64,000 nt of DNA, from the NCBI GenBank assembly GCA_024672275.1, contig GCA_024672275.1_4536.1. One strand, given 5' to 3'. Position 1 is the stretch's first letter, and each line of letters begins with the position of its first letter. The DNA comes from a phage. Under the pieces are notes generated by a model that searched no databases, was not told where the DNA came from, and worked only from the letters and a program-made list of their open reading frames with translations. The translations under genes and the position numbers were made by a program. Shown here piece by piece: positions 13,253-56,205 of this stretch.

Positions 13253-13264
13253 AGGTTGTGTGCA

Positions 13265-28295: not shown

Positions 28296-28304
28296 GGAGA
28301 AATA

Positions 28305-28406: not shown

Positions 28407-28412
28407 TCTATC

Positions 28413-28446
28413 AAAGCTGCATCTTCAATAGGTGCAGCCTTTTAAA
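28413..28446 (+). terminator. putative rho-independent terminator
   Basis: Hairpin GCTGCA..TGCAGC followed by CTTTT. Confidence 0.4.
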
Positions 28447-28458
28447 AGGAGATATGGC

Positions 28459-28632: not shown

Positions 28633-28644
28633 TAAGGAGGTCAT

Positions 28645-28926
28645 ATGGAACTCGTTCAAGAATTGTATAATGCTTTAGGAGCAAAAGGAAAAGATTGGCC
28701 CGAACATGCGCTTATTGCTATAAGAGACTCCGATGGTGAGATTAAGTTTTCAAGCGTAAGTAAAGAGCACATCGTAGAAACAAAACTGGGTATTTACATG
28801 CGTGGAACTTATTGCTTATTCAACACCAGAATGGTAGAAGCCCCTGTTATCGAGGATGGAACAAAAGATTGTCCCACAATCGTAACAAAATCTGAATATG
28901 AGAAGTTTTTCTACGCTAAGGCTTGA
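28645..28926 (+). CDS. hypothetical protein (93 aa)
   Basis: RBS TAAGGAGG + ATG; ORF track. Confidence 0.6.
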   Translation: MELVQELYNALGAKGKDWPEHALIAIRDSDGEIKFSSVSKEHIVETKLGIYMRGTYCLFNTRMVEAPVIEDGTKDCPTIVTKSEYEKFFYAKA

Positions 28927-28960
28927 CACAGAAACAATACTATAGGATAGTGATCCTATC
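28923..28960 (+). promoter_or_regulatory. putative promoter with operator-like palindrome
   Basis: TTGACA 28923-28928; palindrome GATAG-TGATC-CTATC about 28945-28960; -10 assignment ambiguous. Confidence 0.3.
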
Positions 28961-28967
28961 GTAGCAA

Positions 28968-28993
28968 TAGAACCCGCTTCGGCGGGTTTTTTC
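28968..28993 (+). terminator. rho-independent terminator (UUCG tetraloop)
   Basis: CCCGC-TTCG-GCGGG followed by TTTTTT. Confidence 0.65.
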
Positions 28994-29044
28994 ATATCTG
29001 TAGCAATAGGAGGTCGTGTGTTAAATAAAATCGAAGAAGGTTGT

Positions 29045-29248
29045 ATGGCATTTTTGGTAGATAACCCGTTTCCCTTTATGGTTAAGGTCCATGTAGGAGA
29101 GTATTTAGGTTATGACGAATGGGATTGTAGTATCAATAGTGAAATGCACCACTACCAACCAACAATACTTAAGACGGATCAAATGGCGCGTATTACAGTA
29201 GAGGATGAATTGATCATTGAGTTATACGAGAGAGCACTACACAAGTAA
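29045..29248 (+). CDS. hypothetical protein (67 aa)
   Basis: Internal ATG 29045 with RBS GAAGAAGG; alternative GTG 29018. Confidence 0.5.
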   Translation: MAFLVDNPFPFMVKVHVGEYLGYDEWDCSINSEMHHYQPTILKTDQMARITVEDELIIELYERALHK

Positions 29249-29287
29249 GCTAGAACCCACCTAAATCGAACAGAGACGCTCTAAAAT

Positions 29288-29320
29288 AGAAAAGGCACCC
29301 ACTTGGGTGCCTTTGTTTTA
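29288..29320. terminator. bidirectional rho-independent terminator at convergence point
   Basis: Hairpin GGCACCC-ACTT-GGGTGCC flanked by A-run upstream and T-run downstream; + strand block ends, - strand block begins. Confidence 0.65.
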
Positions 29321-29590
29321 TTCTTCGTTAGATTGCGTCTCAGACGCGTTAAATTCGGTTTCAGTACAACTTGCTAGGTAACTTATATTTTGCATCACTA
29401 CAACTACAGGTGTTTGAAGTTTATCTTCTAGCCCCGCAGCCACTTGAGCCAAGGCATTATCAATATTTGATTTCCTAACGCCTGTTCCATGTCCTGTTGC
29501 CAAGTAAAGATTACCTTCCCCTTTTTGTGTAGCATTGGCAAAGTAGTAAACGTAATGTGCAAGGTAGTAATCACGGATTTCTTCAGTCAT
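29318..29590 (-). CDS. hypothetical protein (90 aa)
   Basis: RBS AGGAG + ATG at 29590; ORF track. Confidence 0.55.
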   Translation of the reverse strand: MTEEIRDYYLAHYVYYFANATQKGEGNLYLATGHGTGVRKSNIDNALAQVAAGLEDKLQTPVVVVMQNISYLASCTETEFNASETQSNEE

Positions 29591-29605
29591 TTTATTCTCC
29601 TAATA

Positions 29606-29628
29606 AGAAAGGGGCCGAAGCCCCTTGA
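29606..29628 (-). terminator. UUCG-tetraloop hairpin terminator (family copy 1)
   Basis: AAGGGGC-TTCG-GCCCCTT on - strand followed by UUUCUUAUU and the next RBS; identical hairpin at about 41715 and 46005. Confidence 0.6.
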
Positions 29629-29633
29629 GTGGT

Positions 29634-30449
29634 TTATTTGTTTAAGTGGTCTTCGACCATTTTAATGAAACCTTCATTGCTGAAGGCTGTTGCAGCTTTT
29701 TCTCGGTAAACAAAAACTCCACGATCTTCATAGAGAAGTGTTTCTTCGTAATTAACTCCAGGGTTAACTACAACCATTTTTGTACCCATACTAAGTGCAG
29801 GAAATAATTCCCAATTAAAATTGATAACTTGGTTTGAACATCCTACTACTACAACCAAATCTTGCATGGTCAAAGTATCGAACAAGTGAGCCATATCTGC
29901 ATACAAAGGTGCAGCCTCACCAAAAAATACAACATTAGGCTTCACCCAGTTATAATCATCTATGTTTATACTATTGTAACCAATATCTACCAGTGTTTTG
30001 TAATCTCCAGGATGCATACGGTAAACTACTTCAGGAAGATATCCGTGTACGTGAATAACAGAATCTCTGTCTACACCTGCTCGCTCTAGTAGATCATCAA
30101 CGTTTGTTGTCAAGTTTACTATTTGGTTAGGATATTCCTTAAACCACTTTGCTATTTGAATATGTGCAGCATTAGGTTGTACATCTTTAAGCTCAACACG
30201 TCTTTTGTTATAAAATTCGTGTGTTTTGGCATACAAATCCATACCGTTCTCGTCTACACCACCGACCACTGGAAGATCTGGAGATGTTCTAACACGATAA
30301 CCTGCCTGGAAAGCTCCAATATCGCAGACCTCTTCTAAATCATATTCTTCCCATAAGGCACGACCACTATCGGTGTCTGTTCGGAATGTTCTAATCCCAC
30401 TATCTGCACTTAAACCTGCACCGCTTACAAAAATCACTCGTCTTGGCAT
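29634..30449 (-). CDS. Sir2-family NAD-dependent deacylase/ADP-ribosyltransferase-like protein (271 aa)
   Basis: Sirtuin motifs GAGLSADSGIRTFR, TTNVDDL, HVHG, VFFGE, LVVVGCS; no Cys4 zinc ribbon; RBS GAGGAGG. Confidence 0.6.
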   Translation of the reverse strand: MPRRVIFVSGAGLSADSGIRTFRTDTDSGRALWEEYDLEEVCDIGAFQAGYRVRTSPDLPVVGGVDENGMDLYAKTHEFYNKRRVELKDVQPNAAHIQIAKWFKEYPNQIVNLTTNVDDLLERAGVDRDSVIHVHGYLPEVVYRMHPGDYKTLVDIGYNSINIDDYNWVKPNVVFFGEAAPLYADMAHLFDTLTMQDLVVVVGCSNQVINFNWELFPALSMGTKMVVVNPGVNYEETLLYEDRGVFVYREKAATAFSNEGFIKMVEDHLNK

Positions 30450-30925
30450 TCTTCCTCCTCATAATCATCATAATCTTCGTCATCCAAATCGTACACTTCG
30501 TCTTGAGAATAACTCACTTCAAAGTAAATATCAAACTCCGCAAACAAACGTAGAATGTTGGACATGCTATAATAATTATCGTAGGCAGATTCAGCTTCAT
30601 AGTAAACATAAAGCAAATGGTTAGCCTTATCATCTTCCAAATATTTCCCGTCTGCATACGCATAGTCTGCATATGCTTTACCTGCATCTTCCACAAGAGA
30701 ACGATCAAGCAGAGTAGGAAATGGTTTCTCTTTTTCTTTTAGTTTGCTCACCAACCAGTGTGCAATATTATGCCAATCTGCATCCTCTCCGCTGAAGCAG
30801 CTTGCGACTTCGCCAAACTTGGCATCTCCTAAGTCCCCGCTGATAGTGATCATGGTTGAACTATTGTAACCACAAGTTTCGCAATTTGAACAACTGTTGT
30901 GCACATGAATTTCTACTTGAAACAT
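30434..30925 (-). CDS. hypothetical protein with N-terminal Cys cluster and acidic C-terminus (163 aa)
   Basis: Internal ATG 30925 with RBS GGGAGG; CSNCETCG motif. Confidence 0.5.
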   Translation of the reverse strand: MFQVEIHVHNSCSNCETCGYNSSTMITISGDLGDAKFGEVASCFSGEDADWHNIAHWLVSKLKEKEKPFPTLLDRSLVEDAGKAYADYAYADGKYLEDDKANHLLYVYYEAESAYDNYYSMSNILRLFAEFDIYFEVSYSQDEVYDLDDEDYDDYEEEECQDE

Positions 30926-30942
30926 ATTTCCTCCCATAAAAG

Positions 30943-30970
30943 AAAAGCCCCCTGAAACAGGAGGCTTTGT
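30943..30970 (-). terminator. putative rho-independent terminator
   Basis: - strand hairpin AGCCUCCUG..CAGGGGGCU followed by UUUCUUUU. Confidence 0.45.
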
Positions 30971-30983
30971 TCAGATGCTGGCA

Positions 30984-31637
30984 CTATACCAGACTTTGTA
31001 GGTATTTGTCAAGGGCTTCTTGATCGCCTTGACAAACATAGCAACGGAAGTCTTGAGCCGAAGGTTGTTTATTTTCATCCCAGTCCCAATAAACATTACC
31101 CTTATAACGTGAACCAGGAAACTCAAAAGAGGCTGTATGTGTAATGTATCCTGGGCCACCAGTGAAATCACAGAATGAGAATTGGGGGTATGCCGCCTTT
31201 ACTGCCTCAATAAACCAAGCTTTACGATCTAAGGCTTCATTGATGCTATATGCATGTCTCTCCATTTCTTCCCAAGTTTTCCAGACACTTCTCTCATCAG
31301 GAGAAAAGACAAGCCATTCTGGAAGGTAGAGAGTGTCATAGTAATCATCATATTCGATCTCGGAGGCGCACGAAGCTGACTCCTCCAGTTTTGAGTAATC
31401 AAAAGCAGAATATACCCACCAACCATCTTCCAGTAAGGCTTTGATAGGGACGAAGCCTTTATCAGCATATTGATCGAAGTGTTTGACACGGTGGCTTGTG
31501 CAGTCTTCAAACTCACATTCTAAACGATATGCACCTTTTCGACGAGCCTCAAGACCGTGTGTACTGAAAATAACAACACTTCCTTCACCATCATTACGAT
31601 CTACTTGATAAGCAACTACTGGTTTTGAATTTGACAT
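30984..31637 (-). CDS. hypothetical protein (217 aa)
   Basis: RBS AAGGAG + ATG at 31637; ORF track. Confidence 0.6.
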   Translation of the reverse strand: MSNSKPVVAYQVDRNDGEGSVVIFSTHGLEARRKGAYRLECEFEDCTSHRVKHFDQYADKGFVPIKALLEDGWWVYSAFDYSKLEESASCASEIEYDDYYDTLYLPEWLVFSPDERSVWKTWEEMERHAYSINEALDRKAWFIEAVKAAYPQFSFCDFTGGPGYITHTASFEFPGSRYKGNVYWDWDENKQPSAQDFRCYVCQGDQEALDKYLQSLV

Positions 31638-32320
31638 TATTTCTCCTTATCTAGAAGATTGTTAGACAAAAACACGGCACGAGCAAAACCACGTGCGGTT
31701 AGGGATCTAAGTTGTTTTGTTTTTGCACTAGCTCCACCTAAGCTTTTCCAACCCCAGAAGCAGCCTATATGATCTACTGGTTTCTTCACTGGTTGAACAA
31801 AACCATTGCCGTGCCAAATACAAGTTTTCTTTGTATACCCATCACGGGTAGGCATTTTAGGATGAAAGCTTCCTTCCTCTTCAAACAAATACCCACCATA
31901 CTCATAAGGATCAAAGTAAAAATCGGGTTTACGCCATAAGGTTGAAAGTTTACCTACTGGGTTTTCAATCATCCAAGGAACATTATATTTGTTACCCAAA
32001 GCTTCCACTACACGAATATTAGCTAAAGCTTCATCTAATTCCTCTGTGCTACGTTCGTGTTTGCTACCACTACCTGCTAACATAGTGCAAGGTGGAAATC
32101 CAAAAATAATATCGGGTTTAGGTATCCCATGATCTTCAGGGTTGAATGTAGAATCTATCCAGGCATTCACATAGGTTATGTTTGGGTGCTCCATCCTAAC
32201 CTCGTATTTACCGTGATCCCCTTCATCAGCGTTTACACAAAAACACTTGTGACCTGCTTCGGCATAACGTAACACCATGATCCCAGATCCGTCAAACATA
32301 GACAAAACTGTTTTACTCAT
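31637..32320 (-). CDS. C5-cytosine methyltransferase-like small protein (227 aa)
   Basis: Motif I-like FDGSG, motif IV-like GFPPCT, motif VI-like ENPVG; no obvious target-recognition domain; internal ATG 32320 with RBS GGAGGGG. Confidence 0.4.
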   Translation of the reverse strand: MSKTVLSMFDGSGIMVLRYAEAGHKCFCVNADEGDHGKYEVRMEHPNITYVNAWIDSTFNPEDHGIPKPDIIFGFPPCTMLAGSGSKHERSTEELDEALANIRVVEALGNKYNVPWMIENPVGKLSTLWRKPDFYFDPYEYGGYLFEEEGSFHPKMPTRDGYTKKTCIWHGNGFVQPVKKPVDHIGCFWGWKSLGGASAKTKQLRSLTARGFARAVFLSNNLLDKEK

Positions 32321-32708
32321 TACCCCTCCATTCAAGACAAGCCATAACTTTACGCCAATCACTTTCTGTAAGAAAAATCTCGTTTGCTTTCTTCCACAAA
32401 TCTAAATCGTGAAGGGTTGGAATACGATATGTTAGTTCACAGAATCTATGCTCTTCTTCTGTAATATAACCAAAATGCAGAGCCACATCGTGAAACCAAC
32501 ACCAACCATGCATCTCTCGAACAACATGGTCATGTTGAGACATTGTTTTATGCCGTAAACCTAACCAACAAGGAACAGATACTTTAGTAGTCTTTAATCT
32601 GTGATCAACAGTATTAGAGTATTCAATAATAGCTGTCAGTTTCAATCGTGCTTTTTCTAAATCCTCGTGCGTCACTTTGAAATAACTTTCTGAAAGATAT
32701 CCACACAT
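32313..32708 (-). CDS. hypothetical protein (131 aa)
   Basis: Internal ATG 32708 with RBS AAGGAGG. Confidence 0.5.
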   Translation of the reverse strand: MCGYLSESYFKVTHEDLEKARLKLTAIIEYSNTVDHRLKTTKVSVPCWLGLRHKTMSQHDHVVREMHGWCWFHDVALHFGYITEEEHRFCELTYRIPTLHDLDLWKKANEIFLTESDWRKVMACLEWRGNE

Positions 32709-32709: not shown

Positions 32710-33651
32710 TTAATAACCTCCTTCAAAAGGCTTTACTACATGTTGATTAGCTTTAAAACGTTCAACATAATCGTTTTCGCCCATGTTTTCATATAGCTTA
32801 GTAACAACATAAAAGTTTTCCCAAGCATATTCCCTAAACCAACCACTAGTGATGGATGTGCAGACTTTAGATAAAGCCATTATAAAACTTTGCTTAGGGG
32901 TTGGACCTCCGATCTCTCCACCGAAAGGAATTTGTGAACGTTCCAAAGCCAAAACACACGCTTCTTCATAAACACCTAACAGGCGCACATGTTTTGGTTG
33001 AGCAAAAAACTTTTCTTTGCTGGTCATAACTTCACTTCCATCTTTCATATAAGATTTATATGCCGGAGCATCCATTACCGCGATTGCTTCATGGATAGAA
33101 TCATGATCATAAACATACGGAACCTCATCACCTTTAAAAAAGTCTTTACTTTTTACGTTTAAGTTCGGATGAGAGTAAGTGTATGTTTCTTTCTCACGCA
33201 ACTCATAAATACTCTTAAGATTTTCTGGGATCTTTGCGCCCAGTGACCGCATGAAATGAATATCTTTCATAGTTTTAAAGAAGTGAGGACTATCCTTTTT
33301 AAAACGATGACTCATTTTAAGAAGGTAGAGCACATCTAAAGGAGCAACAACATGTCCAGCGTAAGTTCGACGAACATCATCAGAATCTTCACAATAACTA
33401 ATCAAAGCTTCTGTGCTATCTCCTTGAGAAGCAATATCGTATTCCAAATGTGCACCAGCTATCATTTTGACATGGCCTTTGTTTCCTTTACGTTCTACAA
33501 GTTCAACAAACTCATCTTGAGAGAACATTTTTGATAATTCTTCCCACTCTTGTTCTGTACACAGGTAATCTAAATCTACACAAGGGCGATACAAGTCTTT
33601 TCCCATGTCCATAGCATGAATTTGCAATGCACGGCTACCAATTAACACCAT
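32710..33651 (-). CDS. hypothetical protein (313 aa), weak nucleotidyltransferase-like N-terminus
   Basis: RBS AGAGGAG + ATG; N-terminal GS...(19)...DLD pattern reminiscent of Pol-beta-type NTases (weak). Confidence 0.55.
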   Translation of the reverse strand: MVLIGSRALQIHAMDMGKDLYRPCVDLDYLCTEQEWEELSKMFSQDEFVELVERKGNKGHVKMIAGAHLEYDIASQGDSTEALISYCEDSDDVRRTYAGHVVAPLDVLYLLKMSHRFKKDSPHFFKTMKDIHFMRSLGAKIPENLKSIYELREKETYTYSHPNLNVKSKDFFKGDEVPYVYDHDSIHEAIAVMDAPAYKSYMKDGSEVMTSKEKFFAQPKHVRLLGVYEEACVLALERSQIPFGGEIGGPTPKQSFIMALSKVCTSITSGWFREYAWENFYVVTKLYENMGENDYVERFKANQHVVKPFEGGY

Positions 33652-39709: not shown

Positions 39710-40402
39710 TTAAATAGCGGTTCCTTCGAAATCCGCCACATTTACGAGATTAATATTTTCAGATTTAGAAGTCAAGTTGTTTTCTGCAACAGATTTTTCT
39801 TCAGTATCCGCCTCGTTACCTGCCACGTTACGAGGTTCTTCTTCACCGTAGGGATTACCGAATTTCAAAAGATTGATCAATTCTTCTTTGGAGAAGTTTT
39901 CTAAATCATCATCTGTTAATTCAATAATCTCGTCTTGTTCTTCAATAAATGTTTCACCACCAGAAAAAGCATCTCGCTTTTTAGCTACTTCCATAGCCTG
40001 TTCTGGTGTTGCCCCTGCATCAAGAGCAGCTAAAGCAAAATCTGACCCACTCCCTACTGCATAATATTCTTCATCAATCGGATATGCACGTGTTGGGTTG
40101 TTACCTTCGTGCAGGAAAATACGTCCGTCTGGATGAACAACAAGTGCAATAAACTCTTCATCTTCTTTATCTGGATCAGAGTGAATCATCAAACCAGGGA
40201 CAGCATCACGTGCTGCTTCGCACTGTAGATTTTGTTCAAACCATTGAAAGAAAGAAAGCACGGAGGTCAGACGACCAGCACCACCTACAAGGTAATCTCC
40301 AATTTTTCGGACCTTTTTGAAATTAATAGAATCTACACGTCCACCAAAAGTTACCTTACCGTCACTCAAAATCTTATTTTTGGTTGCAATAATTGTCGTC
40401 AC
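39710..40402 (-). CDS. HslV/proteasome beta-like Ntn-hydrolase protein (230 aa)
   Basis: GTG start giving N-terminus (M)TTIIATKN with Thr after initiator, followed by GG.......KKVRK...GGAG pattern like HslV; RBS GGAGGAAGAA. Confidence 0.45.
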   Translation of the reverse strand: MTTIIATKNKILSDGKVTFGGRVDSINFKKVRKIGDYLVGGAGRLTSVLSFFQWFEQNLQCEAARDAVPGLMIHSDPDKEDEEFIALVVHPDGRIFLHEGNNPTRAYPIDEEYYAVGSGSDFALAALDAGATPEQAMEVAKKRDAFSGGETFIEEQDEIIELTDDDLENFSKEELINLLKFGNPYGEEEPRNVAGNEADTEEKSVAENNLTSKSENINLVNVADFEGTAI

Positions 40403-40937: not shown

Positions 40938-41696
40938 TTAAATAAACACTTCAGTAATCAGTTTAGACAAACGTCCACGTTTATTATCGTCCGTTGTCAG
41001 TTCAACGTATCCAATAAAATCTACAATTGGCTCACGAACACCTTCTTCATTTTCTGGATATAAAAGTTCCAAAATTTGATGCAGACCATTGCTACGTTTT
41101 TTAATTGCATATGTCTGGCGAACATCGCCTAATACAATAACATGCGTATTAATACCTGCACGTTCAATAAGAAGTTTAAGTGTTTCTGTTGACATAAGTT
41201 GTGCTTCGTCAATAATGACGATTGTATTATCCAGGGTAGCCCCTAACAAATAGTTAGGAATATTCAATTCGATCTTACCTGATCCAATATCGTTTTCCAA
41301 TTTGTTGGCTGTCATGAATTGCTGGAAAATACGTTTTGTAGATTCATAGTGTGCTGCTAGTTTATCTGTTTTATCCCCCGACAAGAAACCAATCTGATCA
41401 TCTCCGACTTCAGTAGGGTTCTTGATAAAAAGTAGTTTACGGAAGTCTCCTGAACGAAGCATCTGCAAAGCTTTCCATAAAGCAACAGAGGTTTTACCAG
41501 TCCCTGCCGGAGCATTTACAACAGTCAGATCATTCCAAATCATGCTTTGAACAATCTTATTTTGGTCCCCTTCAGGCATAAATTCATCTAAACGGTAATC
41601 GTCATTACCTACCGCTTTTGCTGCATAACGGCTTTCAATCTTTGCTGAATTAGCCAGTTTCTGCCGTTGTGTTTTAGCTGCGGTTTTATTTCCCAT
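40938..41696 (-). CDS. phoH: PhoH-like ATPase (252 aa)
   Basis: Walker A APAGTGKTSVAL, Walker B IIDEAQ, PhoH-like C-terminus; internal ATG 41696 with RBS AAAAGGAG just after hairpin. Confidence 0.8.
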   Translation of the reverse strand: MGNKTAAKTQRQKLANSAKIESRYAAKAVGNDDYRLDEFMPEGDQNKIVQSMIWNDLTVVNAPAGTGKTSVALWKALQMLRSGDFRKLLFIKNPTEVGDDQIGFLSGDKTDKLAAHYESTKRIFQQFMTANKLENDIGSGKIELNIPNYLLGATLDNTIVIIDEAQLMSTETLKLLIERAGINTHVIVLGDVRQTYAIKKRSNGLHQILELLYPENEEGVREPIVDFIGYVELTTDDNKRGRLSKLITEVFI

Positions 41697-41711
41697 AGTA
41701 GCACTCCTTTT

Positions 41712-41735
41712 AGAAGGGGCCGAAGCCCCTTTATT
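41712..41735 (-). promoter_or_regulatory. UUCG-tetraloop hairpin (family copy 2), terminator/processing site
   Basis: Identical AAGGGGC-TTCG-GCCCCTT between lysozyme stop (41734) and phoH RBS; weak U-tract, so may be attenuator or stability element. Confidence 0.5.
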
Positions 41736-42234
41736 AGTTGTAAGCATCTAAAGTTCCAGAAGTCAGAACTTTAATTACTCGTTCAGCACGGTTTGGCGTC
41801 TGGCTATACCATCGGCTTTTACGCATGTTTTTACCTGCTTGAGTATAATATGCATTGCTGATTAAAGTCAAGCTATTTTGAAACCCTTCAGCACCTTTTA
41901 ACCCCAACTGGAAAACCATGTTGATTATTCCCAATTTACGAGTATCACTAACCTTATCATAGATTGGTGATAAGATAGTACTGTTTTTTATGTCTCTCTT
42001 CACTTTTGCAACATCATCAGCAAAGATTTGACGGGCTTCTTTTTCTGTGATAACTCCATTAGTCTTACGACCAAGAAGATTATCTAAGATTTGAATAGCC
42101 TTTGCTTTATCTTTTATTTTAGTCAGAAGGTGTCCTATGCCGACTGTCCAATAACCAAGATGGTCTTGATAAACAGTAAGCTTCAGTCCTTCATCGACTC
42201 GTAGCATATCAAACTCATCTACTACTTTAGCCAT
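41734..42234 (-). CDS. T4-type lysozyme (GH24 endolysin), 166 aa
   Basis: Near-colinear with T4 gene e lysozyme: catalytic region MLR.DEGL.L..Y.D..GYWTIGIGHLLTK, C-terminal SRWY.QTPNRA..VI. Confidence 0.9.
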   Translation of the reverse strand: MAKVVDEFDMLRVDEGLKLTVYQDHLGYWTVGIGHLLTKIKDKAKAIQILDNLLGRKTNGVITEKEARQIFADDVAKVKRDIKNSTILSPIYDKVSDTRKLGIINMVFQLGLKGAEGFQNSLTLISNAYYTQAGKNMRKSRWYSQTPNRAERVIKVLTSGTLDAYN

Positions 42235-42241
42235 TTACTTC

Positions 42242-42391
42242 CTATTCGTCGTCTCCTACTCCGTGATCCAACTCGTTAAACAACAGATGTTCTGGAGAAG
42301 TTTCACGTTTTGGTTTCGTTTTCTTTATGTTGGACTTCAGCTCATTTGCCAAAGCACGAGAAAAGATCTTACGTTTCTGTTTACTTTTCAT
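42242..42391 (-). CDS. small basic protein (49 aa)
   Basis: ATG 42391 with RBS GGAG; K/R-rich; below ORF-track cutoff. Confidence 0.35.
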   Translation of the reverse strand: MKSKQKRKIFSRALANELKSNIKKTKPKRETSPEHLLFNELDHGVGDDE

Positions 42392-42396
42392 AATTG

Positions 42397-42657
42397 TTAC
42401 TCCGCAATTTGAGCCATGAGATCACGCAGTTCGGTAAAACCGCCTACGTATGTTACCTCCCCGTTCACTTCAGACAGAATTTGTGGAAATGTGCGTGGAG
42501 GAACTCCGGTAAGATCAACAACTGTTTTAGTCATTGATTCTAAATCATAGTCTTGATCAAGACTTAAATATTCAAACTGTTTATTGCGCATGGTTAATAG
42601 TTGTTTTGACATTTCGCAAAATTGACAGTTAGGTTTACCAAAAATTACAAATTCCAT
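42397..42657 (-). CDS. glutaredoxin-like redoxin (NrdH/Grx-type), 86 aa
   Basis: Active-site CQFC in thioredoxin-fold context FGKPNCQFCE; location beside nrdAB. Confidence 0.7.
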   Translation of the reverse strand: MEFVIFGKPNCQFCEMSKQLLTMRNKQFEYLSLDQDYDLESMTKTVVDLTGVPPRTFPQILSEVNGEVTYVGGFTELRDLMAQIAE

Positions 42658-43499
42658 TACCTCTCCTTATTAAGTAATACTGCTAAAGACTGTTCAATAC
42701 CTTTATTTAAATCTGATTTTGTAAGATAGTGACTGGTTACTAATTGTGACTTCACCGGACGTGCTGCTGGAGCATTATAGGTTGAAGCTGATACCGCCGA
42801 TATCTTAACAGGTTCTGGCATCTGTGTCAAGATCTTTTCCGCAAACTCCGCCCAAGAAATAAAATGGCTTCCTGCAAAATGGTAAGTCTTAACAGACCTT
42901 GACCAACCTGTTTTTAATACTTCAAAAATAGCTTCTGCTAAATCTGGAGCATATGTTGGACAAGAGAACTGATCAGCAACAATAATAAAATCACGTTGTC
43001 CATCGTTATAGCGAGACAACATCGTTTTTAGAAAGTTATTTCCAAATTCACTATATACCGAGGCTGTTCGAATAATATATGCATTTGGGTTAACTCCTCG
43101 CACCATTTTTTCACCAAGTTCTTTCGTATACCCATAATTGTTTATTGGGTTAGGTGTAGTATCTTCAAAAATAGGATGAGAATAATTAAAAATATAGTCT
43201 GTAGAAATATGCACAAAATCAATTTTAAGTTTGCTGCACACTGCCGCAATATTCGCAGGTCCATAAGCATTAACAGCCAAAGCAGTAGCAAAATCATGTT
43301 CTGCTTTATCTACAGCCGTATAAGCGGCGCAATTAATAACACCATCTACATAATCTTCAATAATAGCGTTTCGCACAGCTTCAAAATTTGTAATATCTAC
43401 ACGTTCTTTAGGATAAATTAAAGATACATTTGAAGGAGCCACTTTACGTAAAGCTTGTCCCAGTTGTCCATTACCACCCAATACCAGATATGTTAGCAT
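42657..43499 (-). CDS. rmlD: dTDP-4-dehydrorhamnose reductase RmlD (280 aa)
   Basis: N-terminal Rossmann LVLGGNGQLG, YTAVDKAE, STDY..Y.K...E catalytic region; overlaps rmlC stop. Confidence 0.85.
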   Translation of the reverse strand: MLTYLVLGGNGQLGQALRKVAPSNVSLIYPKERVDITNFEAVRNAIIEDYVDGVINCAAYTAVDKAEHDFATALAVNAYGPANIAAVCSKLKIDFVHISTDYIFNYSHPIFEDTTPNPINNYGYTKELGEKMVRGVNPNAYIIRTASVYSEFGNNFLKTMLSRYNDGQRDFIIVADQFSCPTYAPDLAEAIFEVLKTGWSRSVKTYHFAGSHFISWAEFAEKILTQMPEPVKISAVSASTYNAPAARPVKSQLVTSHYLTKSDLNKGIEQSLAVLLNKER

Positions 43500-44059
43500 A
43501 CACCCTCACTACGCAACTGTTGAAAAGATTTAGCCATTGCATCTTTTGTTGATAAGATAGGTTTAAAACCTTCGTCAAAAATCATATCGAAGCCCCAATC
43601 GATCCCTATGTCAGGATCATCCCAACGTAAACTTTGTTCGCTAGAAGGGTCGTATGGAGTTGTGCATTTGTATTCAAAGATAGCGTCCATACTCAAAACT
43701 ATAAAACCATGTGCCAAACCAGGGGGAAGCCAAAACTGCGTATGGTGTCGTGCACGAAGAACAACACCGTCCCAAGCACCGTAAGTTGGACTATCTTTAC
43801 GTAAATCTACAGCGAAATCCAATACTTCTCCACTTACACAACGAACAAGCTTACCTTGCGGGTTATTTGTTTGAAAGTGCATTCCTCGCAAAACACCGAA
43901 GTTTGATTTAGACATATTGTCTTGAACGAAAGTTTGTTTACCAATGATATCTTCGTATTTTTGTTCATTGTATGTTTCTAAAAAGAAACCACGATCATCT
44001 TTATAAACGTCTGGTTTGATAATTACCGCACCTTCAATTTTTGTTTTTTCTACTTTCAT
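43493..44059 (-). CDS. rmlC: dTDP-4-dehydrorhamnose 3,5-epimerase RmlC (188 aa)
   Basis: Cupin signature DDRGFFLETYN, VQDN.SKS..GVLRG.HFQ, GKLVRCV.GEV.D.AVD.RK.SPT.G, DP.IGIDW. Confidence 0.9.
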   Translation of the reverse strand: MKVEKTKIEGAVIIKPDVYKDDRGFFLETYNEQKYEDIIGKQTFVQDNMSKSNFGVLRGMHFQTNNPQGKLVRCVSGEVLDFAVDLRKDSPTYGAWDGVVLRARHHTQFWLPPGLAHGFIVLSMDAIFEYKCTTPYDPSSEQSLRWDDPDIGIDWGFDMIFDEGFKPILSTKDAMAKSFQQLRSEGVC

Positions 44060-44068
44060 TTTCTCTCC

Positions 44069-44395
44069 TTACCAGACATGTTGAGAAATAATAGTTTCCG
44101 TTTTAATGTTATATTTTTCAAGTAGCTCTACATAGGCTTCTTTTGCATTCTCATTTACTTGCTCAAGATCTACAGCTACGCTTCCTTCTCCGCCTTCTAA
44201 ATAAATACCATATATGCAATAAGACTCATCAGCATCGTAGAAAGGAGAGATGCGACTTAAGTCAAGACCTTCTTGTAAGAACCAGTTAAAATCTCCATCA
44301 AATTCTTCTTCAATTCTAGGATCTTCTCCTACAACCTCTTCCCACTTATTAAAAGGTGCACCCTGTAACATACGCCATTCGATATCAATACCCAT
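44069..44395 (-). CDS. hypothetical acidic protein (108 aa)
   Basis: RBS AGGAGGAG + ATG; ORF track. Confidence 0.55.
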   Translation of the reverse strand: MGIDIEWRMLQGAPFNKWEEVVGEDPRIEEEFDGDFNWFLQEGLDLSRISPFYDADESYCIYGIYLEGGEGSVAVDLEQVNENAKEAYVELLEKYNIKTETIISQHVW

Positions 44396-44549
44396 TTTTC
44401 ATCTCCTCCTCTTCTTGAGCAGCTTTAATAATTGCTTCATAAATATCGTAAGCAATGCCTCCACAACATCTAGCTTCGAAAGCTATTGCTTCTGCAATAT
44501 GATCTGTTAATTCTCGTGGAATTCGGACATACTCTTTTTCACTCTCCAT
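44385..44549 (-). CDS. hypothetical small protein (54 aa)
   Basis: RBS GGAGGTAGAAG + ATG 44549; overlaps both neighbours; below ORF-track cutoff. Confidence 0.45.
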   Translation of the reverse strand: MESEKEYVRIPRELTDHIAEAIAFEARCCGGIAYDIYEAIIKAAQEEEEMKNGY

Positions 44550-44691
44550 CTTCTACCTCCAACCCTTCTTTTTCAAAGACTACTACTCGTCCTTCACCAT
44601 GACAATTCAGGCAAGGAAATGTTACCATAATTTCCACTTCCATCTGTCCAGTCCCACCACACACAGGACAAAAAATAAGTTTTTCAGCCAT
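44539..44691 (-). CDS. zinc-ribbon small protein (50 aa)
   Basis: RBS AAGGAGGAATA + ATG 44691 (TAATG overlap); CPVCGG ... CLNCHG. Confidence 0.45.
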   Translation of the reverse strand: MAEKLIFCPVCGGTGQMEVEIMVTFPCLNCHGEGRVVVFEKEGLEVEDGE

Positions 44692-44900
44692 TATTCCTCC
44701 TTAATTATTTCAAACTTGGCAACACCATTTACAATAATATGACCACAAGACATAACTCCTAGCCAAGGATCGCCGTTTTTCTTCAGGCGTTTACCGAATA
44801 CATCACAAAAACCATTCTTCATTTCGGAGGCTTCATAAGAAGCCCCTTTGTCAAAAACGTCTTTGAATGTGTCGATTATACCAACACATCTCAAAATCAT
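44691..44900 (-). CDS. hypothetical protein (69 aa)
   Basis: ATG overlapping nrdB stop (TAATG); ORF track. Confidence 0.5.
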   Translation of the reverse strand: MILRCVGIIDTFKDVFDKGASYEASEMKNGFCDVFGKRLKKNGDPWLGVMSCGHIIVNGVAKFEIIKEE

Positions 44901-45985
44901 TAGAAGTCAAGCTCCTCATCATCAGAGAGATCTTTGTTAGCTGAATTCAATTTGTAATTAGTTAACTGAATCTCTTGGGCTGCTGACTGAATCAAATCAG
45001 GATTCAACCATTTTTCCATCCAAGCTAAAGGACTATGTTTAGGTGCTTTAAACTTAGCTTTCATTTTCAATCGACGATAAATAGGAGCAGCATTGAAATA
45101 AACCCACTGTTTAGACAATTCAGCGTTAAGACCTACAATAAAACGACCTTCACTAAACAGGTAGTCACACCACTGTTCCTCTTGTTCAACAACAGTGTCG
45201 AGGATCAAAGTCAACTCTTCAATATTGTCTTCGTAAATTTTACGCCAAATTGGGTCATGCAGCAATGCATCAATTACAGCATAATCCATCTTAACATGCA
45301 AGATTTCATCTAGCATAATTTTCTGGATCAGTTTACAAGCCCCAACAAACAGTTGTTGTTCTGCCATAGCAAAAGTAGCAGAGAAGGAAGATATAAACTG
45401 AATACCTTCTAATCCAATCAGGGCTACCATCCCTTTAAGAATCAGCAGTCGAAGTTCATCGTTAGCTTCAATCAATCCTAGAGCATACTTATGACCAGCT
45501 TCTTCCAACTGACCCATGATATCAGCAATGATACCCATACGATTGAAAATTTTATCATTAATCATAATCTGATTGATGACTTCAATTGGATCTGGAGTAC
45601 ATTGACGGATTATTTCAGAATACGTTAACGCATGGAGAACTTCCATTTCACTCTGCTTCATCATCATAGCACAGGCTTCATTGTTACTCAAGAATGGAGA
45701 GAACAAAGTGATGATTGATTTTGCAAGAGAATCATTTTCCCATTGGAACGATAAGTTTTTAATCATAACATCATAGTTGTTTTTAGAACAAGCTACGAAA
45801 TCTTTACGTGTCTGATCCAGATTAACTTCGTTTTCATCCCAATCTTGTGCTTTTTGAAGTTTGTAGAGTTTGTGCATTTCTGGATAAGTTACGTTAACAG
45901 AATCAAAGATCCCTAATTGTTCCCCTAAAAATACTGGATATTTTCCTGTTTTGTAAACTTCGTTATGTAAATTAATTGCTGCCAT
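44900..45985 (-). CDS. nrdB: ribonucleotide reductase class Ia small subunit NrdB (361 aa)
   Basis: Colinear with E. coli NrdB: N-terminal PVFLGE...Y....KLYKLQKAQDW..NEV, di-iron ligand region, C-terminal acidic tail DDEELDF. Confidence 0.9.
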   Translation of the reverse strand: MAAINLHNEVYKTGKYPVFLGEQLGIFDSVNVTYPEMHKLYKLQKAQDWDENEVNLDQTRKDFVACSKNNYDVMIKNLSFQWENDSLAKSIITLFSPFLSNNEACAMMMKQSEMEVLHALTYSEIIRQCTPDPIEVINQIMINDKIFNRMGIIADIMGQLEEAGHKYALGLIEANDELRLLILKGMVALIGLEGIQFISSFSATFAMAEQQLFVGACKLIQKIMLDEILHVKMDYAVIDALLHDPIWRKIYEDNIEELTLILDTVVEQEEQWCDYLFSEGRFIVGLNAELSKQWVYFNAAPIYRRLKMKAKFKAPKHSPLAWMEKWLNPDLIQSAAQEIQLTNYKLNSANKDLSDDEELDF

Positions 45986-46001
45986 TTAAATCCTCCTCAA
46001 T

Positions 46002-46024
46002 AAAAGGGGCCGAAGCCCCTTTAC
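46002..46024 (-). terminator. UUCG-tetraloop hairpin terminator (family copy 3)
   Basis: Identical AAGGGGC-TTCG-GCCCCTT between nrdA stop and nrdB RBS; - strand U-tract UUUUAUU. Confidence 0.6.
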
Positions 46025-46051
46025 GTTTACCCTTCTTCACCTGTTCTCCTA

Positions 46052-48295
46052 CTACATTTTACAGGCACTACACCCTTCGTCTTCAGAATCTTCTTGTGCT
46101 AAAGAGTCTGCTGATTTTGTTCTACTATTAAGGTAATACAATGACTTGCCACCCAATCTGGCAAAATTCAGAATAAACTGCATCTCAGCTTTCACTGATA
46201 AACGTCCACCTACCAATTTAGAATAATCTAGCCAAGAATCACAAGAAATTCCTTGGTCCGTGAATTTGGTAAAGATACCATACATTTCTGCAAGATCTTT
46301 AGCCGGAGTATCCCAGGCGGATTGGTAGAACATTTTCAGTTTTTCGTAGTCTGGAACAATAAATAATACACTACCTTTCTGACTTTGTTTATACATGATA
46401 GTATCACGAACAGGATACAGAGAGTTAGTAGTATTGCTTACCAAACTGCTGGACTCATTAGGTGCAATAGCAGCCAAAACACTGTTACGGATACCACCTT
46501 GTTCAATGATTTCAGCACGTAAGCCTTCCCAGTCCATTTTAAGATCGAAATTACCGATACTATCTACTGTTTTAGCATAAGTATCAATTGGTAGCCAACC
46601 TTGAGGCCATTTGGTCTTATCGATCCACTCCGCATTACCTTTTTCCTTAGCCAGGCGCAGAGAGGCTTTTGCCAACCAAAAGTAATGACGTTCTGCAAGT
46701 TCATGCATTAATTTTTTAGCATAAGCATCTGAATAATTTACAAAATTACTTGCCAAGTAATGCGCTAAGTTTGTAATGCCTACACCAATAGATCTACGTG
46801 CTTTAGCAGTTATTTCGTTATGTTTAAATGGATAATCCATTGTTTCAATAACGTTGTCAATTGTCAATACAGCGTAGTATGCAACATCTTCATATTCTTC
46901 AGGTAATACACGACCAGCAACAATAGAAGATAAGAAACATAAAGCCAATTCTTGATCTTCAGTATTCTCACCAGTAAAGAGATCCGGCATATTGTGGAAA
47001 GCTTTAGTCGGTAAGAAAATCTCTTGACACAGATTTGATTGATACACCGTATCCAGGAAAGGTGTATGGTTGTTAACGTTGTCAGCAAAGAACATGTAAA
47101 TACGTCCTGTTTCTGCACGTTGAACAATAATCTCTGTCAGAAGATCACGAGCCTTAACAAATTTTTTCTTAATGCGACGACGGCTTACTTTGTCATAAAC
47201 TGCATCAAACTCTTCTTCACTTTTATACAAAGCTTCATAAAGTTCAGGAGCATCATCACAACTAACTAACATCCAATCTTCGTTTTTTGCTGCTCGACGC
47301 AAGAATGAACGGTTAACAACAATAGAATAATCCAGTTTGTCTACTCGTTTATCTATAGGTGTTGTTGGATTCTTCAGTCGAATCAGATCATCAAAGTCTG
47401 GTTCAAGTATGGTGAAGGTAACTGTAGCACTACCTCCACGGCTTGCTTGCTTCGAAGCTCCAACACTATCTTCCATCCATTTCAGATACGGAAGAAGACC
47501 ACCATGAATAATACGATTATTCTTAACACCTTGACCTGTGGCACGAGTTTGAAGATTAACACCAATACCTGCGTTATTCAACGTATACTCATGAGCTAAG
47601 TAGTTAGCAATGGCTAAAGACTCTGCCGTATCGTCTGCACGGAATAAACAACAAGACGCACTTCCTTTGATTGGAGTTCGTAGAGTTGTCAGATACGGCG
47701 ATGGCAGATTAATCTTAAGATCGCTAACATAAGTATAAAGTTTTTTAATATCTTCTATACGGCGTTCTTTTGGTTGGATCTCCATAACCTTCATTGCGAT
47801 ACCAATGAAAAGAAACTGTGGAGACTCATGCACAACATCGTTTACTGCATCTCGAATAAGATATTTATCTACCATCTGACGTAAAACAGAATAACCATAA
47901 GTTAGATTTTTATTATGCTTTACAATCTTACCGATTTCTTTGATCTCTTCATCAGTATAATCCATTTTAGCCCAATGTCCACGTTCTACCATATCATGAT
48001 AAAAGGTATTCAGTGAAGGGATACTGTGGTATCCCCCATGAGCCTGTTTGTAAATCATACCCAGAAGAAGTCTTCCTGCCATATCACTGTAAGCTTGTGT
48101 TTTCTTGTCAATACACGCTGCAATCATTGCTTTATGCAGATCACGTGTAGACACACCGTCATAACACCGCTTCACAGCTTCTAATTCAATTTCAGACCAG
48201 TTTAGTTTACCTGCTGCAAATTCAGACCACTTGCGAAGTTTTTCTGGATTAAACTCCTCTGTCTTACCGTTAGATTTAGTTACAAAACGAATCAA
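46052..48295 (-). CDS. nrdA: ribonucleotide reductase class Ia large subunit NrdA (747 aa)
   Basis: ATP-cone N-terminus (VTKSNGKTEEFNPEK), active-site region SNLCQEIFLPT, C-terminal redox Cys pair CSACKM; TTG start with RBS AGGGAGGAG. Confidence 0.95.
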   Translation of the reverse strand: MIRFVTKSNGKTEEFNPEKLRKWSEFAAGKLNWSEIELEAVKRCYDGVSTRDLHKAMIAACIDKKTQAYSDMAGRLLLGMIYKQAHGGYHSIPSLNTFYHDMVERGHWAKMDYTDEEIKEIGKIVKHNKNLTYGYSVLRQMVDKYLIRDAVNDVVHESPQFLFIGIAMKVMEIQPKERRIEDIKKLYTYVSDLKINLPSPYLTTLRTPIKGSASCCLFRADDTAESLAIANYLAHEYTLNNAGIGVNLQTRATGQGVKNNRIIHGGLLPYLKWMEDSVGASKQASRGGSATVTFTILEPDFDDLIRLKNPTTPIDKRVDKLDYSIVVNRSFLRRAAKNEDWMLVSCDDAPELYEALYKSEEEFDAVYDKVSRRRIKKKFVKARDLLTEIIVQRAETGRIYMFFADNVNNHTPFLDTVYQSNLCQEIFLPTKAFHNMPDLFTGENTEDQELALCFLSSIVAGRVLPEEYEDVAYYAVLTIDNVIETMDYPFKHNEITAKARRSIGVGITNLAHYLASNFVNYSDAYAKKLMHELAERHYFWLAKASLRLAKEKGNAEWIDKTKWPQGWLPIDTYAKTVDSIGNFDLKMDWEGLRAEIIEQGGIRNSVLAAIAPNESSSLVSNTTNSLYPVRDTIMYKQSQKGSVLFIVPDYEKLKMFYQSAWDTPAKDLAEMYGIFTKFTDQGISCDSWLDYSKLVGGRLSVKAEMQFILNFARLGGKSLYYLNSRTKSADSLAQEDSEDEGCSACKM

Positions 48296-50079: not shown

Positions 50080-50688
50080 TTAGTTTTTAAAATTGTTCAA
50101 AGTGTTAAAAACATCCAAACATGTTAGCCACTGATCTTCTAAACTTGTGATCACAACATTTGGTTTTTTCTTTAGTTCTTCTAGATGGTTATCTTTATAA
50201 GGCGTATTAAAATATATTTTAACCACTTCATCTGGAAAATATAGTAGGTTATCAGCCCTGTCATCTATTGCTATGTCACAAGGCAATAAGTATTTTTCTT
50301 TCGTAGCAAAAAAGCCGTTGCCAGATCCTTTGCTAAAATCAATCGTATCTAATGTTCTTAAAACATGCTTATGTTTAGAACTTAAGTGACCACCTTTTGT
50401 CACACTTGCGATCAAAAGATTGCTACCTTTTCTTGAAACATACTTTAAGAAATCTGGCATACCTGTAACAAAACCCATCGTATCATAGAGATGAGGATTA
50501 TCCAGAAATCCGTAAGGATCTATGTTGAACTCTTCCCTGAAACCAGGAAAATAGTTGGTAAGATCGTAATCTGCATTTTTTGTGAATGTGTCGATTTTAA
50601 CACCAAGGCCACTAATCTTATTCAACCATTCTAACCAAGCAACATCTAACGGAGCCACAACTAAATCCCAATCACATACTATCTGCAT
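50080..50688 (-). CDS. HAD-family 5'(3')-deoxyribonucleotidase-like protein (202 aa)
   Basis: N-terminal DxD motif (VCDWDLV) of HAD phosphatases; location in dNTP metabolism cluster. Confidence 0.4.
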   Translation of the reverse strand: MQIVCDWDLVVAPLDVAWLEWLNKISGLGVKIDTFTKNADYDLTNYFPGFREEFNIDPYGFLDNPHLYDTMGFVTGMPDFLKYVSRKGSNLLIASVTKGGHLSSKHKHVLRTLDTIDFSKGSGNGFFATKEKYLLPCDIAIDDRADNLLYFPDEVVKIYFNTPYKDNHLEELKKKPNVVITSLEDQWLTCLDVFNTLNNFKN

Positions 50689-55479: not shown

Positions 55480-56205
55480 TTACTTGTTAATAATACCTGC
55501 GATATTAGGTTTAATGAAACCTGACCACTTCATGATCTTACCTTTATCATCAAAGAACACATACACTTTCTGTTTTTCATTATAAACAGCATGGACACCA
55601 GTGTATGCCCCTTCTGGACGATTGGCATTTCGTTCTTCAATTGCAGCGCATTCTTGTGCAATGGCTGAATCGATATCTGAAGTTTTCCAAGTTTTCAGCA
55701 ACTGTTGTTTAGTTGGATACTTGGAATCATTACTTTTCAATACCTCTTTAATAACTTTCTTTTCTGGATATTTTGAACGGATCAGAGTGTCACGAGACAT
55801 ACGCATAATACCCGCAGCCATTAGCGCCATTTGAACTGGCTCTGTAAATGTTTGTTCCAAAGCATCGAAATCGGTATACACAGTTGGAGTAAAAACATCG
55901 CCTACAGCATAGTCCAAGAAATTCAGCGTATGTTCTTCACCAAAGAACATGTAAGTAAGATAACTGGATACTACAAAAATATCCGCTGCTGCATCCAAGA
56001 GTTCTACATGATCGTTTACTTTCGCGGCTGTTTCATACTCTTTAAGCTCTTCACGAACGAACCCGATTTGGGACATAAATAACTCTTGAGTGAATTCAGG
56101 TTGTTCACCACCTCGTGCTTTGGCATTCCAATCAATTACGTGCTTTGCTGCATTTTTGAAAAATTCAGTATCGAATTTAATATCTTTAAAAAAATTCTCG
56201 ATCAT
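55480..56205 (-). CDS. MazG-like all-alpha NTP pyrophosphohydrolase-like protein (241 aa)
   Basis: EE..E...A......VELLDAAADI pattern typical of MazG/HisE fold (weak); RBS TAAGGAGAAA. Confidence 0.35.
   Translation of the reverse strand: MIENFFKDIKFDTEFFKNAAKHVIDWNAKARGGEQPEFTQELFMSQIGFVREELKEYETAAKVNDHVELLDAAADIFVVSSYLTYMFFGEEHTLNFLDYAVGDVFTPTVYTDFDALEQTFTEPVQMALMAAGIMRMSRDTLIRSKYPEKKVIKEVLKSNDSKYPTKQQLLKTWKTSDIDSAIAQECAAIEERNANRPEGAYTGVHAVYNEKQKVYVFFDDKGKIMKWSGFIKPNIAGIINK

Follow-up and report, generated by a model that had tools for sequence, protein, structure and literature searches.

The stretch of phage DNA considered here (NCBI GenBank assembly GCA_024672275.1, contig GCA_024672275.1_4536.1; 64,000 nucleotides in all, referred to below as the window) carries two adjacent genes, rmlC and rmlD, belonging to the deoxythymidine diphosphate-L-rhamnose (dTDP-L-rhamnose) pathway. 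The interval 42657-44059 is filled exactly by two minus-strand open reading frames (ORFs), whose positions and those of the other features are collected in Table 1. RmlC matched the Pfam family dTDP_sugar_isom (PF00908) along profile positions 1-167 of 168, with E = 7.8e-67 and 224.6 bits (cut-off 27), and scored 225.3 bits with the NCBIfam equivalog TIGR01221 rmlC (cut-off 155.75). For RmlD, the values were E = 2.6e-73 and 247.1 bits with Pfam RmlD_sub_bind (PF04321; cut-off 27) and 238.5 bits with the equivalog TIGR01214 rmlD, narrowly above the cut-off of 224.05; its 118 bits with the enterobacterial-type model NF007440 stayed below the cut-off of 308. The family scores of both proteins are far above chance. 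PHROGs labels the RmlC ORF a dTDP-4-dehydrorhamnose 3,5-epimerase and the RmlD ORF a nucleotide-sugar epimerase, while among solved structures all the best PDB relatives of RmlC are RmlC proteins (E 7e-56) and the nearest to RmlD are the RmlD entries 3SC6, 1VL0 and 1KBZ (E 6e-44).

When RmlC was aligned with 24 homologues, residues H61 (in RGMHFQ), K70 (GKLVR), Y130 (EYKC) and D173 (TKDA) were found to be kept and invariant, as were the substrate-binding residues R23, Q46, N48 and R58. In the Salmonella enzyme, the catalytic His-Asp dyad, the Tyr acid and the Lys are His63, Asp170, Tyr133 and Lys73. RmlD, aligned with 3SC6 and 1VL0, retains the nucleotide-binding G8xxG11xxG14 motif, together with T100 (ISTDY) and Y122xxxK126 (YGYTK) of the short-chain dehydrogenase/reductase (SDR) family. 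Judging from these residues, both proteins look like active enzymes rather than pseudo-enzymes. An earlier note on this DNA had given the two genes the same identities, rightly so, given the equivalog scores and the retained residues; the loss of active-site residues, which it had named as one finding that would speak against its reading, was not seen, since the catalytic residues are all present in RmlC and RmlD.

In the direction of transcription, the gene order is nrdA, nrdB, four small ORFs, rmlC, rmlD, the glutaredoxin gene grx, a small ORF, lysozyme and phoH. The flanks described in the earlier note, nrdAB on one side and lysozyme/phoH on the other, thus hold, but the glutaredoxin gene lies downstream of rmlD, at the end away from nrdAB. 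Between rmlC and rmlD there is an overlap of 7 nt (ATGCTAA), and the stop codon of rmlD overlaps the start of the glutaredoxin gene by 1 nt (TAATG). This last adjacency was kept in 16 of 16 related loci, with glutaredoxin identities of 42-100%, and also in phage PaulScherrer.

The window belongs to a Phapecoctavirus (subfamily Stephanstirmvirinae, ~150 kb). Its best match is Escherichia phage ECO340P1 (99.5% identity), the thirty Phapecoctavirus genomes that match best show identities of 98.3-99.5% across the region, and the window maps to 44,235-106,170 of phage anhysbys. Seven records bear host labels that look doubtful, the phages being assigned by name to Campylobacter, Acinetobacter, Pseudomonas or Serratia (MG065639, MG065650, MG065656, MG065689, OP562383, OR584014 and OK210077). 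In the genes compared, their similarity is about that of named coliphage Stephanstirmvirinae; ABPW7, for instance, shows 99.1% DNA identity to window positions 41500-45000, and RmlC of Campylobacter phage B15 is 98.9% identical.

Searching the window by tblastn with RmlA and RmlB of phage ESCO5 revealed neither rmlA nor rmlB, as the earlier note had stated; the sole match of RmlB was rmlD itself, and a weak one (E 7e-4). The note had also proposed looking through the rest of the genome, and in anhysbys, a complete genome with the same two-gene arrangement, no homologue of RmlA or RmlB is present anywhere. The four-enzyme pathway to dTDP-L-rhamnose is hence incomplete in the window and in anhysbys, the genes for RmlA and RmlB being absent.

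The situation is different in other members of the group. An rmlB-rmlA pair lies directly upstream of rmlC in ESCO5, EF1-1, PNJ1809-36, tuntematon and P3322, and both ESCO5 proteins score above their equivalog cut-offs. The Justusliebigvirus PaulScherrer shows the order nrdA, nrdB, small ORFs, rmlB, rmlA, rmlC, rmlD, grx, lysozyme, phoH, and in uncultured relatives from IMG/VR the arrangement nrdB-rmlB-rmlA-rmlC-rmlD-grx-lysozyme-phoH is kept even where identity has fallen to 42% in RmlD and 69% in NrdB. Since this synteny is kept in Phapecoctavirus, Justusliebigvirus and distant IMG/VR relatives, the comparison indicates that the four-gene operon is the ancestral state.

The junction left in the window can be read letter by letter. 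In the four-gene phages, TAAGGAGAACTGATG stands ahead of rmlB and GCGGAG(A/G)GAAAATG ahead of rmlC; the window carries the hybrid TAAGGAGAGAAAATG, with the crossover inside the GGAGA common to both Shine-Dalgarno sites. The stop of the upstream 108-aa ORF, which in four-gene relatives precedes rmlB, is thereby joined directly to rmlC. The deletion, of 1,876 bp and with GGAGA as its microhomology, removed exactly rmlB and rmlA. The eight two-gene phages aligned all have an identical junction, and GenBank phage records contain the deletion junction in 22 cases and the intact rmlA-rmlC junction in 40, so that two-gene phages make up 22 of 62. About two-thirds of the Phapecoctavirus records, as well as PaulScherrer, keep the four-gene operon; the two-gene state is derived, and the absence of rmlA and rmlB is a recent lineage-specific loss and no original design feature.

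Analogous losses have occurred more than once. Phapecoctavirus DIJ07P2 carries an independent deletion of ~802 bp, extending from the 3' end of rmlB into the 5' part of rmlA, and the 148.7-kb IMG/VR contig 3300030441_000047 retains rmlA-rmlC-rmlD, having independently lost rmlB only. No loss of rmlC or rmlD was found among the lineages examined, including all those that lost rmlA and/or rmlB. The two-gene phages did not come out as monophyletic on rmlCD distances; together with the identical junction, this means that one deletion event has spread by recombination and does not mark a clean clade. Evidently, then, a single deletion allele circulates by recombination, a process documented between co-infecting members of the group (PMC10269720).

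A separate observation concerns phiWec179, phiWec186, phiWec190, 'Pseudomonas phage PsgM04F' and the IMG/VR locus L053. Their RmlA is ~97% identical to that of Phapecoctavirus and their RmlC and RmlD only ~65%, and RmlB of L053, compared with its Phapecoctavirus counterpart, shows 92% identity. This pattern puts a recombination breakpoint in these phages at the boundary of rmlA and rmlC, where the window's deletion has its right end.

The retained genes have continued to evolve under constraint. The ratio of non-synonymous to synonymous polymorphism (pN/pS) of rmlC was 0.033 within the two-gene phages and 0.021 within the four-gene phages; for rmlD, the corresponding values were 0.136 and 0.204. 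Within the two-gene phages, rmlC showed on average 10.8 synonymous and 1.4 non-synonymous differences. Stops and frameshifts were absent from 13 of the 14 rmlCD sequences compared (the window and twelve relatives), the exception being P3322. Both rmlC and rmlD are under purifying selection. As for vB_EcoM-P3322, its rmlD (locus L017, 1658-2499) contains a 1-nt gap not shared by any of the other phages and is annotated as two coding sequences, reflecting either a sequencing error or a real pseudogene.

What the host can supply is relevant to these losses. The substrate of RmlC, dTDP-4-dehydro-6-deoxy-D-glucose, is in E. coli used by WecE as well, on the way to enterobacterial common antigen, and according to the K-12 annotation it is made by rffG/rffH. 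The rffG-rffH segment was present at a coverage of at least 80% in 5306 of 5426 complete E. coli genomes. By contrast with this first half of the pathway, rfbC was detectable by blastn in 2199 of the 5426 genomes and reached at least 80% coverage in 1069, counts that are lower bounds, since blastn may pass over divergent alleles. Nearly every host can thus carry out the first two pathway steps itself, which does not hold for the last two; the repeated loss of rmlA and rmlB, with retention of rmlC and rmlD, fits this redundancy.

The phage genes are not particularly similar to those of the host. Identity to the K-12 proteins is 50% for RmlC (with RfbC) and 31% for RmlD (with RfbD). Among cellular RmlC proteins, the closest (Pectobacterium, Klebsiella and Serratia) reach 56-60%; members of a phage-only clade reach 57-87%. 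A recent capture of the rml genes from a host was considered and rejected on these figures, cellular RmlC standing at no more than 60% as against 57-87% in the phage clade.

A possible consumer of the sugar is found in relatives, outside the region covered by the window. The earlier note had suggested looking for glycosyltransferases elsewhere in the genome, and the outcome was positive: in anhysbys, four consecutive glycosyltransferase (GT) genes (gp016, gp015, gp014 and gp013) lie beside the primase/helicase gene, and the same cluster occurs in PaulScherrer. The window itself contains none of the cassette GTs, and their presence in its own phage is likely from the near-identity of these relatives. 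The paralogous gp014 and gp013 are GT-B proteins; the AlphaFold model of GT-B has a predicted local distance difference test (pLDDT) score of 92, and its best PDB matches are GT4 enzymes (BshA, PglA, TarM and SdgB; template modelling (TM) score ~0.6). The gp015 protein is a GT-A enzyme with FDDD and YGxED motifs (pLDDT 89), for which only generic GT-A matches were obtained (STIV A197, LH3 and TarP; TM ~0.4), and gp016 is a small GT-A-like protein. No membrane-spanning segment was detected in any of the four, nor did any of them score above threshold with a Pfam or NCBIfam family; PHROGs names them only 'glycosyltransferase'.

The distribution of the cassette follows that of the rml genes rather closely. 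Using tblastn on phage records, we found GT-A in 135 and RmlC in 168, with exactly 65 in each case at 95% identity or above, i.e., at the Phapecoctavirus level. Outside this band, the tallies by organism are also close (Escherichia 107 versus 106 and Klebsiella 9 versus 8 in the GT-A and RmlC searches, respectively), and Justusliebigvirus, phiWec phages and relatives from Klebsiella phages appear in both searches among the matches listed. The Vequintavirus phages of the BASEL collection are evidently absent from both lists, as each contains only four records with a K-12 host. In six cases, GT-A and rml genes occur on the same IMG/VR contig, with GT-A identities as low as 35-36%.

The cassette is also mobile, being common to large lytic rV5-like myoviruses and to unrelated temperate prophages of Serratia, Enterobacter and Pseudomonas. 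The GT-B homologues on all three bacterial contigs examined lie in prophages (of Pseudomonas silvicola, Serratia and Enterobacter huaxiensis), in which the cassette has the same gene order and is flanked by the lysis genes on one side and the terminase genes on the other. An SDR gene resembling NDP-hexose 4,6-dehydratases is inserted inside the cassette of the Enterobacter prophage and of a 24-kb IMG/VR contig (L035), which also carries a homologue of the primase/helicase (50% identity); the product of the inserted gene has a TDE motif, and its best matches are dTDP-glucose 4,6-dehydratases. This insertion ties the cassette physically, and independently of the rml genes, to 6-deoxyhexose nucleotides. 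Circumstantial as it is, the 4,6-dehydratase link is the strongest indication that a donor sugar comes from the rml genes.

These observations suggest the following scheme. RmlC and RmlD would take up dTDP-4-dehydro-6-deoxy-D-glucose made by the host, either by RffH and RffG for enterobacterial common antigen or, in rhamnose-containing O-serotypes, by RmlA and RmlB. RmlC would epimerise C3 and C5, and RmlD would reduce C4 with NAD(P)H, yielding dTDP-L-rhamnose. With rmlC left by the deletion behind the former ribosome-binding site of rmlB, the phage would be able to make dTDP-L-rhamnose even in hosts without an rmlC and rmlD of their own. The GT cassette beside the primase/helicase gene is the probable consumer and would build a rhamnose-containing glycan.

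Overall, we find it reasonably probable that rmlC and rmlD are the functional, retained half of an old phage operon, rmlB-rmlA-rmlC-rmlD-grx, that use a host intermediate and feed the GT cassette. Among the roles listed in the earlier note, the supply of dTDP-rhamnose for a phage-directed glycosylation is accordingly the one favoured by the four-GT cassette of the relatives. More tentatively, the rml genes may feed a gp016-like GT, the GT-A and the GT4-like GT-B enzymes so as to build a 6-deoxyhexose glycan on virion proteins, the phage perhaps keeping only those steps that hosts cannot reliably provide. We know of no such virion-protein glycan system in phages of Gram-negative bacteria. As the acceptor, we favour a protein or an envelope glycan over DNA; a glycan placed at sparse DNA sites instead of on virion proteins seems less likely.

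Several points weigh against this interpretation. The fold matches of the GTs are generic (GT-A and GT4-like GT-B) and, as far as the models go, define neither the donor sugar nor the acceptor. The co-occurrence of rml and GT genes falls largely within one phage clade and could reflect shared descent. The prophages with the GT cassette had no rml genes in the 7-10 kb flanks examined, so the cassette is not strictly dependent on a phage-encoded supply of rhamnose. Recombination with four-gene phages could reintroduce selected rmlCD alleles, which would weaken the pN/pS argument, and the lower bound on rfbC means that the last steps may be available in more hosts than were counted. RmlD lies just above its equivalog cut-off, and L-rhamnose and 6-deoxy-L-talose as products cannot be told apart from the sequence. 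Finally, no functional (biochemical or genetic) study of the phage rml genes was found in the literature searched, which covered phAPEC8, Phapecoctavirus, phi92, Justusliebigvirus, Stephanstirmvirinae, hypermodification, phage dTDP-L-rhamnose and virion glycosylation.

The phage might alternatively use the two enzymes to manipulate host metabolism, no glycan being made, either by pulling the shared intermediate away from enterobacterial common antigen or O-antigen or by raising the level of dTDP-L-rhamnose, which inhibits RmlA, and so sparing deoxythymidine triphosphate (dTTP). Indeed, dTDP-L-rhamnose is a feedback inhibitor of RmlA. The rml genes are co-oriented and tightly packed with nrdAB and the genes for glutaredoxin, the ThyX homologue and the deoxynucleotidase; only the two distal enzymes would be needed, matching the two-gene state; and the branch-point intermediate is nearly universal among hosts. 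However, the ancestral and majority state includes phage RmlA and RmlB, which would use more dTTP, and the co-occurrence of rml with a four-GT cassette, itself joined elsewhere to a 4,6-dehydratase, points to use of the sugar and not to its disposal. We therefore regard such manipulation as unlikely. The drain on the dTDP-sugar pool and the link to thymidine metabolism, both put forward in the earlier note, likewise fit poorly with an ancestral operon that had its own thymidylyltransferase.

A role in DNA hypermodification, in which a modified base would receive its sugar from dTDP-L-rhamnose in the manner of the glucosylated hydroxymethylcytosine of T4, was proposed by Olsen et al. (2020; PMC7552041), who mention these genes. 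It agrees with the position of rml in a nucleotide-metabolism block, with that of the GT cassette beside the primase/helicase and DNA polymerase genes (and, in temperate phages, beside terminase genes), and with the divergence of the window's ThyX homologue, whose match is partial and of 35 bits. This homologue is the sole thymidylate-synthase-like protein of the window, no ThyA-type enzyme being seen in the annotation or the Pfam scans. At 332 aa, it is longer than expected for a ThyX. Also in keeping with the idea, gp015 gave weak local matches to the TET-associated glycosyltransferase (Pfam, E 1.1e-3) and to the beta-glucosyl-HMC alpha-glucosyltransferase (phrog_842, E 5.8e-6), but these span only ~40 residues of the generic GT-A nucleotide-binding/DXD region. 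We considered both hints and set them aside as generic DXD-region similarity and not evidence for a DNA acceptor.

Other findings also argue against a DNA acceptor. No ThyA-type hydroxymethylase and no TET/JBP protein was seen in the annotated genome or among 20 ORFs of the window scanned with Pfam (29.6-38.0 kb and 49.1-58.2 kb), which represent part of the genome's ORFs. In particular, no TET-like dioxygenase was found near the putative cytosine methyltransferase (29.6-38 kb), where Sir2, DUF7275/DUF7277 and metallophosphatase proteins occur instead, and among the genes called around the prophage cassettes none could be recognised as base-modifying. Furthermore, according to Maffei et al. 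(2021; PMC8594841), phages of this group, those with the full pathway included, are exceptionally susceptible to restriction-modification systems. Given this sensitivity and the lack of a hydroxymethylase or TET gene in the annotation, bulk DNA glycosylation is unlikely (DNA was among the possible targets named in the earlier note), and we judge hypermodification as a whole to be improbable.

The end product could also differ from the one we prefer. If RmlD had the C4 stereospecificity of a Tll-like enzyme, dTDP-6-deoxy-L-talose or another 6-deoxyhexose would be formed, and the marginal TIGR01214 score, the 31% identity to RfbD and the failure to reach NF007440 leave some room for this. Still, the best curated family and every solved relative at E <= 1e-20 is RmlD, and no Tll-specific model outscored it, which makes a different product decidedly improbable. 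That rmlC and rmlD are functionless remnants on their way out after the loss of rmlA and rmlB is hardly credible: the pathway is incomplete in this genome and rmlD of P3322 is split, but the window's copies are among the intact ones, synonymous changes dominate and the catalytic residues are invariant, the precise deletion leaves rmlC with a Shine-Dalgarno site and a start codon, the two-gene allele is spread over 22 records, several countries and several hosts, and both genes persist in every lineage that lost rmlA and/or rmlB.

The remaining features of the region are listed in Table 1. A scan of 40.8-48.6 kb revealed no terminator-like site on the minus strand from nrdB to phoH, and sigma-70 promoters and terminators together gave 30 sites, as compared to 25.3 +/- 4.5 in shuffled sequence, i.e., no excess. 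The 108-aa ORF upstream of rmlC occupies the same position in ESCO5, in PaulScherrer and in 7 of the 16 IMG/VR loci. Only a 66-nt spacer (45986-46051) separates nrdA from nrdB in the window; ESCO5 has an HNH endonuclease gene and a ~112-aa ORF in this gap, and PaulScherrer the ~112-aa ORF only. The sign of the GC skew changes at ~28000-31000, together with a switch in gene orientation from plus to minus; the plus strand of the first 28 kb (1-28 kb) holds many small early-type ORFs and the minus strand a block of metabolism and replication genes.

Table 1. Features of the rmlC-rmlD locus, of the surrounding window and, in the last five lines, of the glycosyltransferase cassette in relatives. 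Positions are those of the window unless another record is named.
Feature	Position	Strand	Evidence and remarks
rmlC, dTDP-4-dehydrorhamnose 3,5-epimerase, 188 aa, cupin fold	43493..44059	-	PF00908, TIGR01221
rmlD, dTDP-4-dehydrorhamnose reductase, 280 aa, SDR	42657..43499	-	PF04321, TIGR01214
Deletion scar and Shine-Dalgarno site	44060..44068	-	Coding strand TAA-GGAGAGAAA-ATG
Glutaredoxin, 86 aa	42397..42657	-	PF00462, E 1.8e-9; translationally coupled to rmlD (TAATG)
Conserved 108-aa ORF directly upstream of rmlC	44069..44395	-	phrog_15453, E 3.7e-71
nrdB	44900-45985	-	ORF list; annotated in relatives as class Ia ribonucleotide reductase subunit
nrdA	46052-48295	-	ORF list; annotated in relatives as class Ia ribonucleotide reductase subunit
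T4-type lysozyme	41734-42234	-	PF00959, E 5e-11; conserved synteny downstream
PhoH-like ATPase	40938-41747	-	PF02562, E 1.2e-36; conserved synteny downstream
HslV-family peptidase homologue	39710-40402	-	
ThyX homologue, 332 aa	49072-50070	-	Pfam Thy1, E 1.6e-8, 35 bits; partial, profile positions 59-191 of 191
NT5C-like deoxynucleotidase	50080-50688		Adjoins the ThyX homologue
MazG-like PRA-PH protein	55480-56205		
Sir2-family protein	29634-30449	-	Pfam, E 1.9e-22
Dcm-type DNA methyltransferase	31637-32362	-	By annotation in relatives; no Pfam match
DUF7277+DUF7275 protein	32710-33651	-	Pfam
GT cassette, NC_052656.1 (L003)	10294-13438		
GT cassette, prophage L019	9357-10960		
GT cassette, prophage L020	5589-7670		
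GT cassette, prophage L021	7797-10921		
GT cassette, IMG/VR contig L035			

As a feature of these phages, rmlC and rmlD are known: they are already annotated in dozens of GenBank records of relatives, and the rml genes have been termed 'peculiar' in print. Maffei et al. (2021; PMC8594841) wrote of a 'putative dTDP glycosylation machinery' in this phage group, and a 2023 study of avian-pathogenic E. coli phages (PMC10269720) recorded that ESCO37 is without rmlA and rmlB, giving neither the junction nor an explanation. No published description of the GT cassette was found in the literature searched. What is new here is the mechanism of the deletion, the evidence for continued selection, the explanation by host redundancy with its genome counts, and the GT cassette as a mobile, phage-specific module, in some cases joined to a 4,6-dehydratase.

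Phages of this group, which are used in phage-therapy cocktails, bear on the question of what nucleotide-sugar genes do in lytic phages. Four-, three- and two-gene operons occur as a natural polymorphism in otherwise near-identical phages, and matched host mutants can be had in rffG/rffH, rfbB/rfbA and rfbC/rfbD. Used together, the polymorphism and the host mutants can reveal whether dTDP-rhamnose made by the phage is of consequence and where its sugar ends up. Decoration of virions by the GT cassette, if it occurs, would matter for the stability of the phage, for its recognition by the immune system and for its host range.

With the bacterial rmlBDAC/rfb pathway (RfbB, RfbD, RfbA and RfbC in E. 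coli), the window genes share the enzyme families, the predicted chemistry of the last two steps and the catalytic residues. Unlike the bacterial genes, they are encoded by a lytic phage, cover only the last two of four steps, and belong to a nucleotide-metabolism operon coupled to glutaredoxin and not to an O-antigen cluster. Another counterpart is the four-gene operon of other Stephanstirmvirinae (phAPEC8, ESCO5, tuntematon, phi92 and BASEL phage Bas60 PaulScherrer), found at the same locus with the same flanks. The rmlC-rmlD DNA is 97.5-99.1% identical to that of the Phapecoctavirus relatives compared (96.8% for DIJ07P2), the difference being that the window belongs to the minority, 22 of 62, in which a single deletion of 1,876 bp, common to them all, has taken away rmlB and rmlA.

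Freeman et al. are said to have described virion glycosylation in mycobacteriophages in 2023, and giant viruses reportedly carry nucleotide-sugar enzymes plus GTs. These systems, like the one described here, combine nucleotide-sugar genes with several soluble GTs, independently of the host O-antigen machinery. In contrast, a published analysis of a glycan on a defined acceptor was not found for the present group, and its GTs are phage-specific and only generically GT-A- or GT4-like. The T-even glucosylation and arabinosylation systems and the systems with TET-associated GTs likewise place GTs of lytic phages among replication genes, and one weak local GT match connects them to the cassette. 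They differ from it in that no hydroxymethylase or TET partner was seen here, that the present phages are restriction-sensitive, and that the donor would be a dTDP-sugar.

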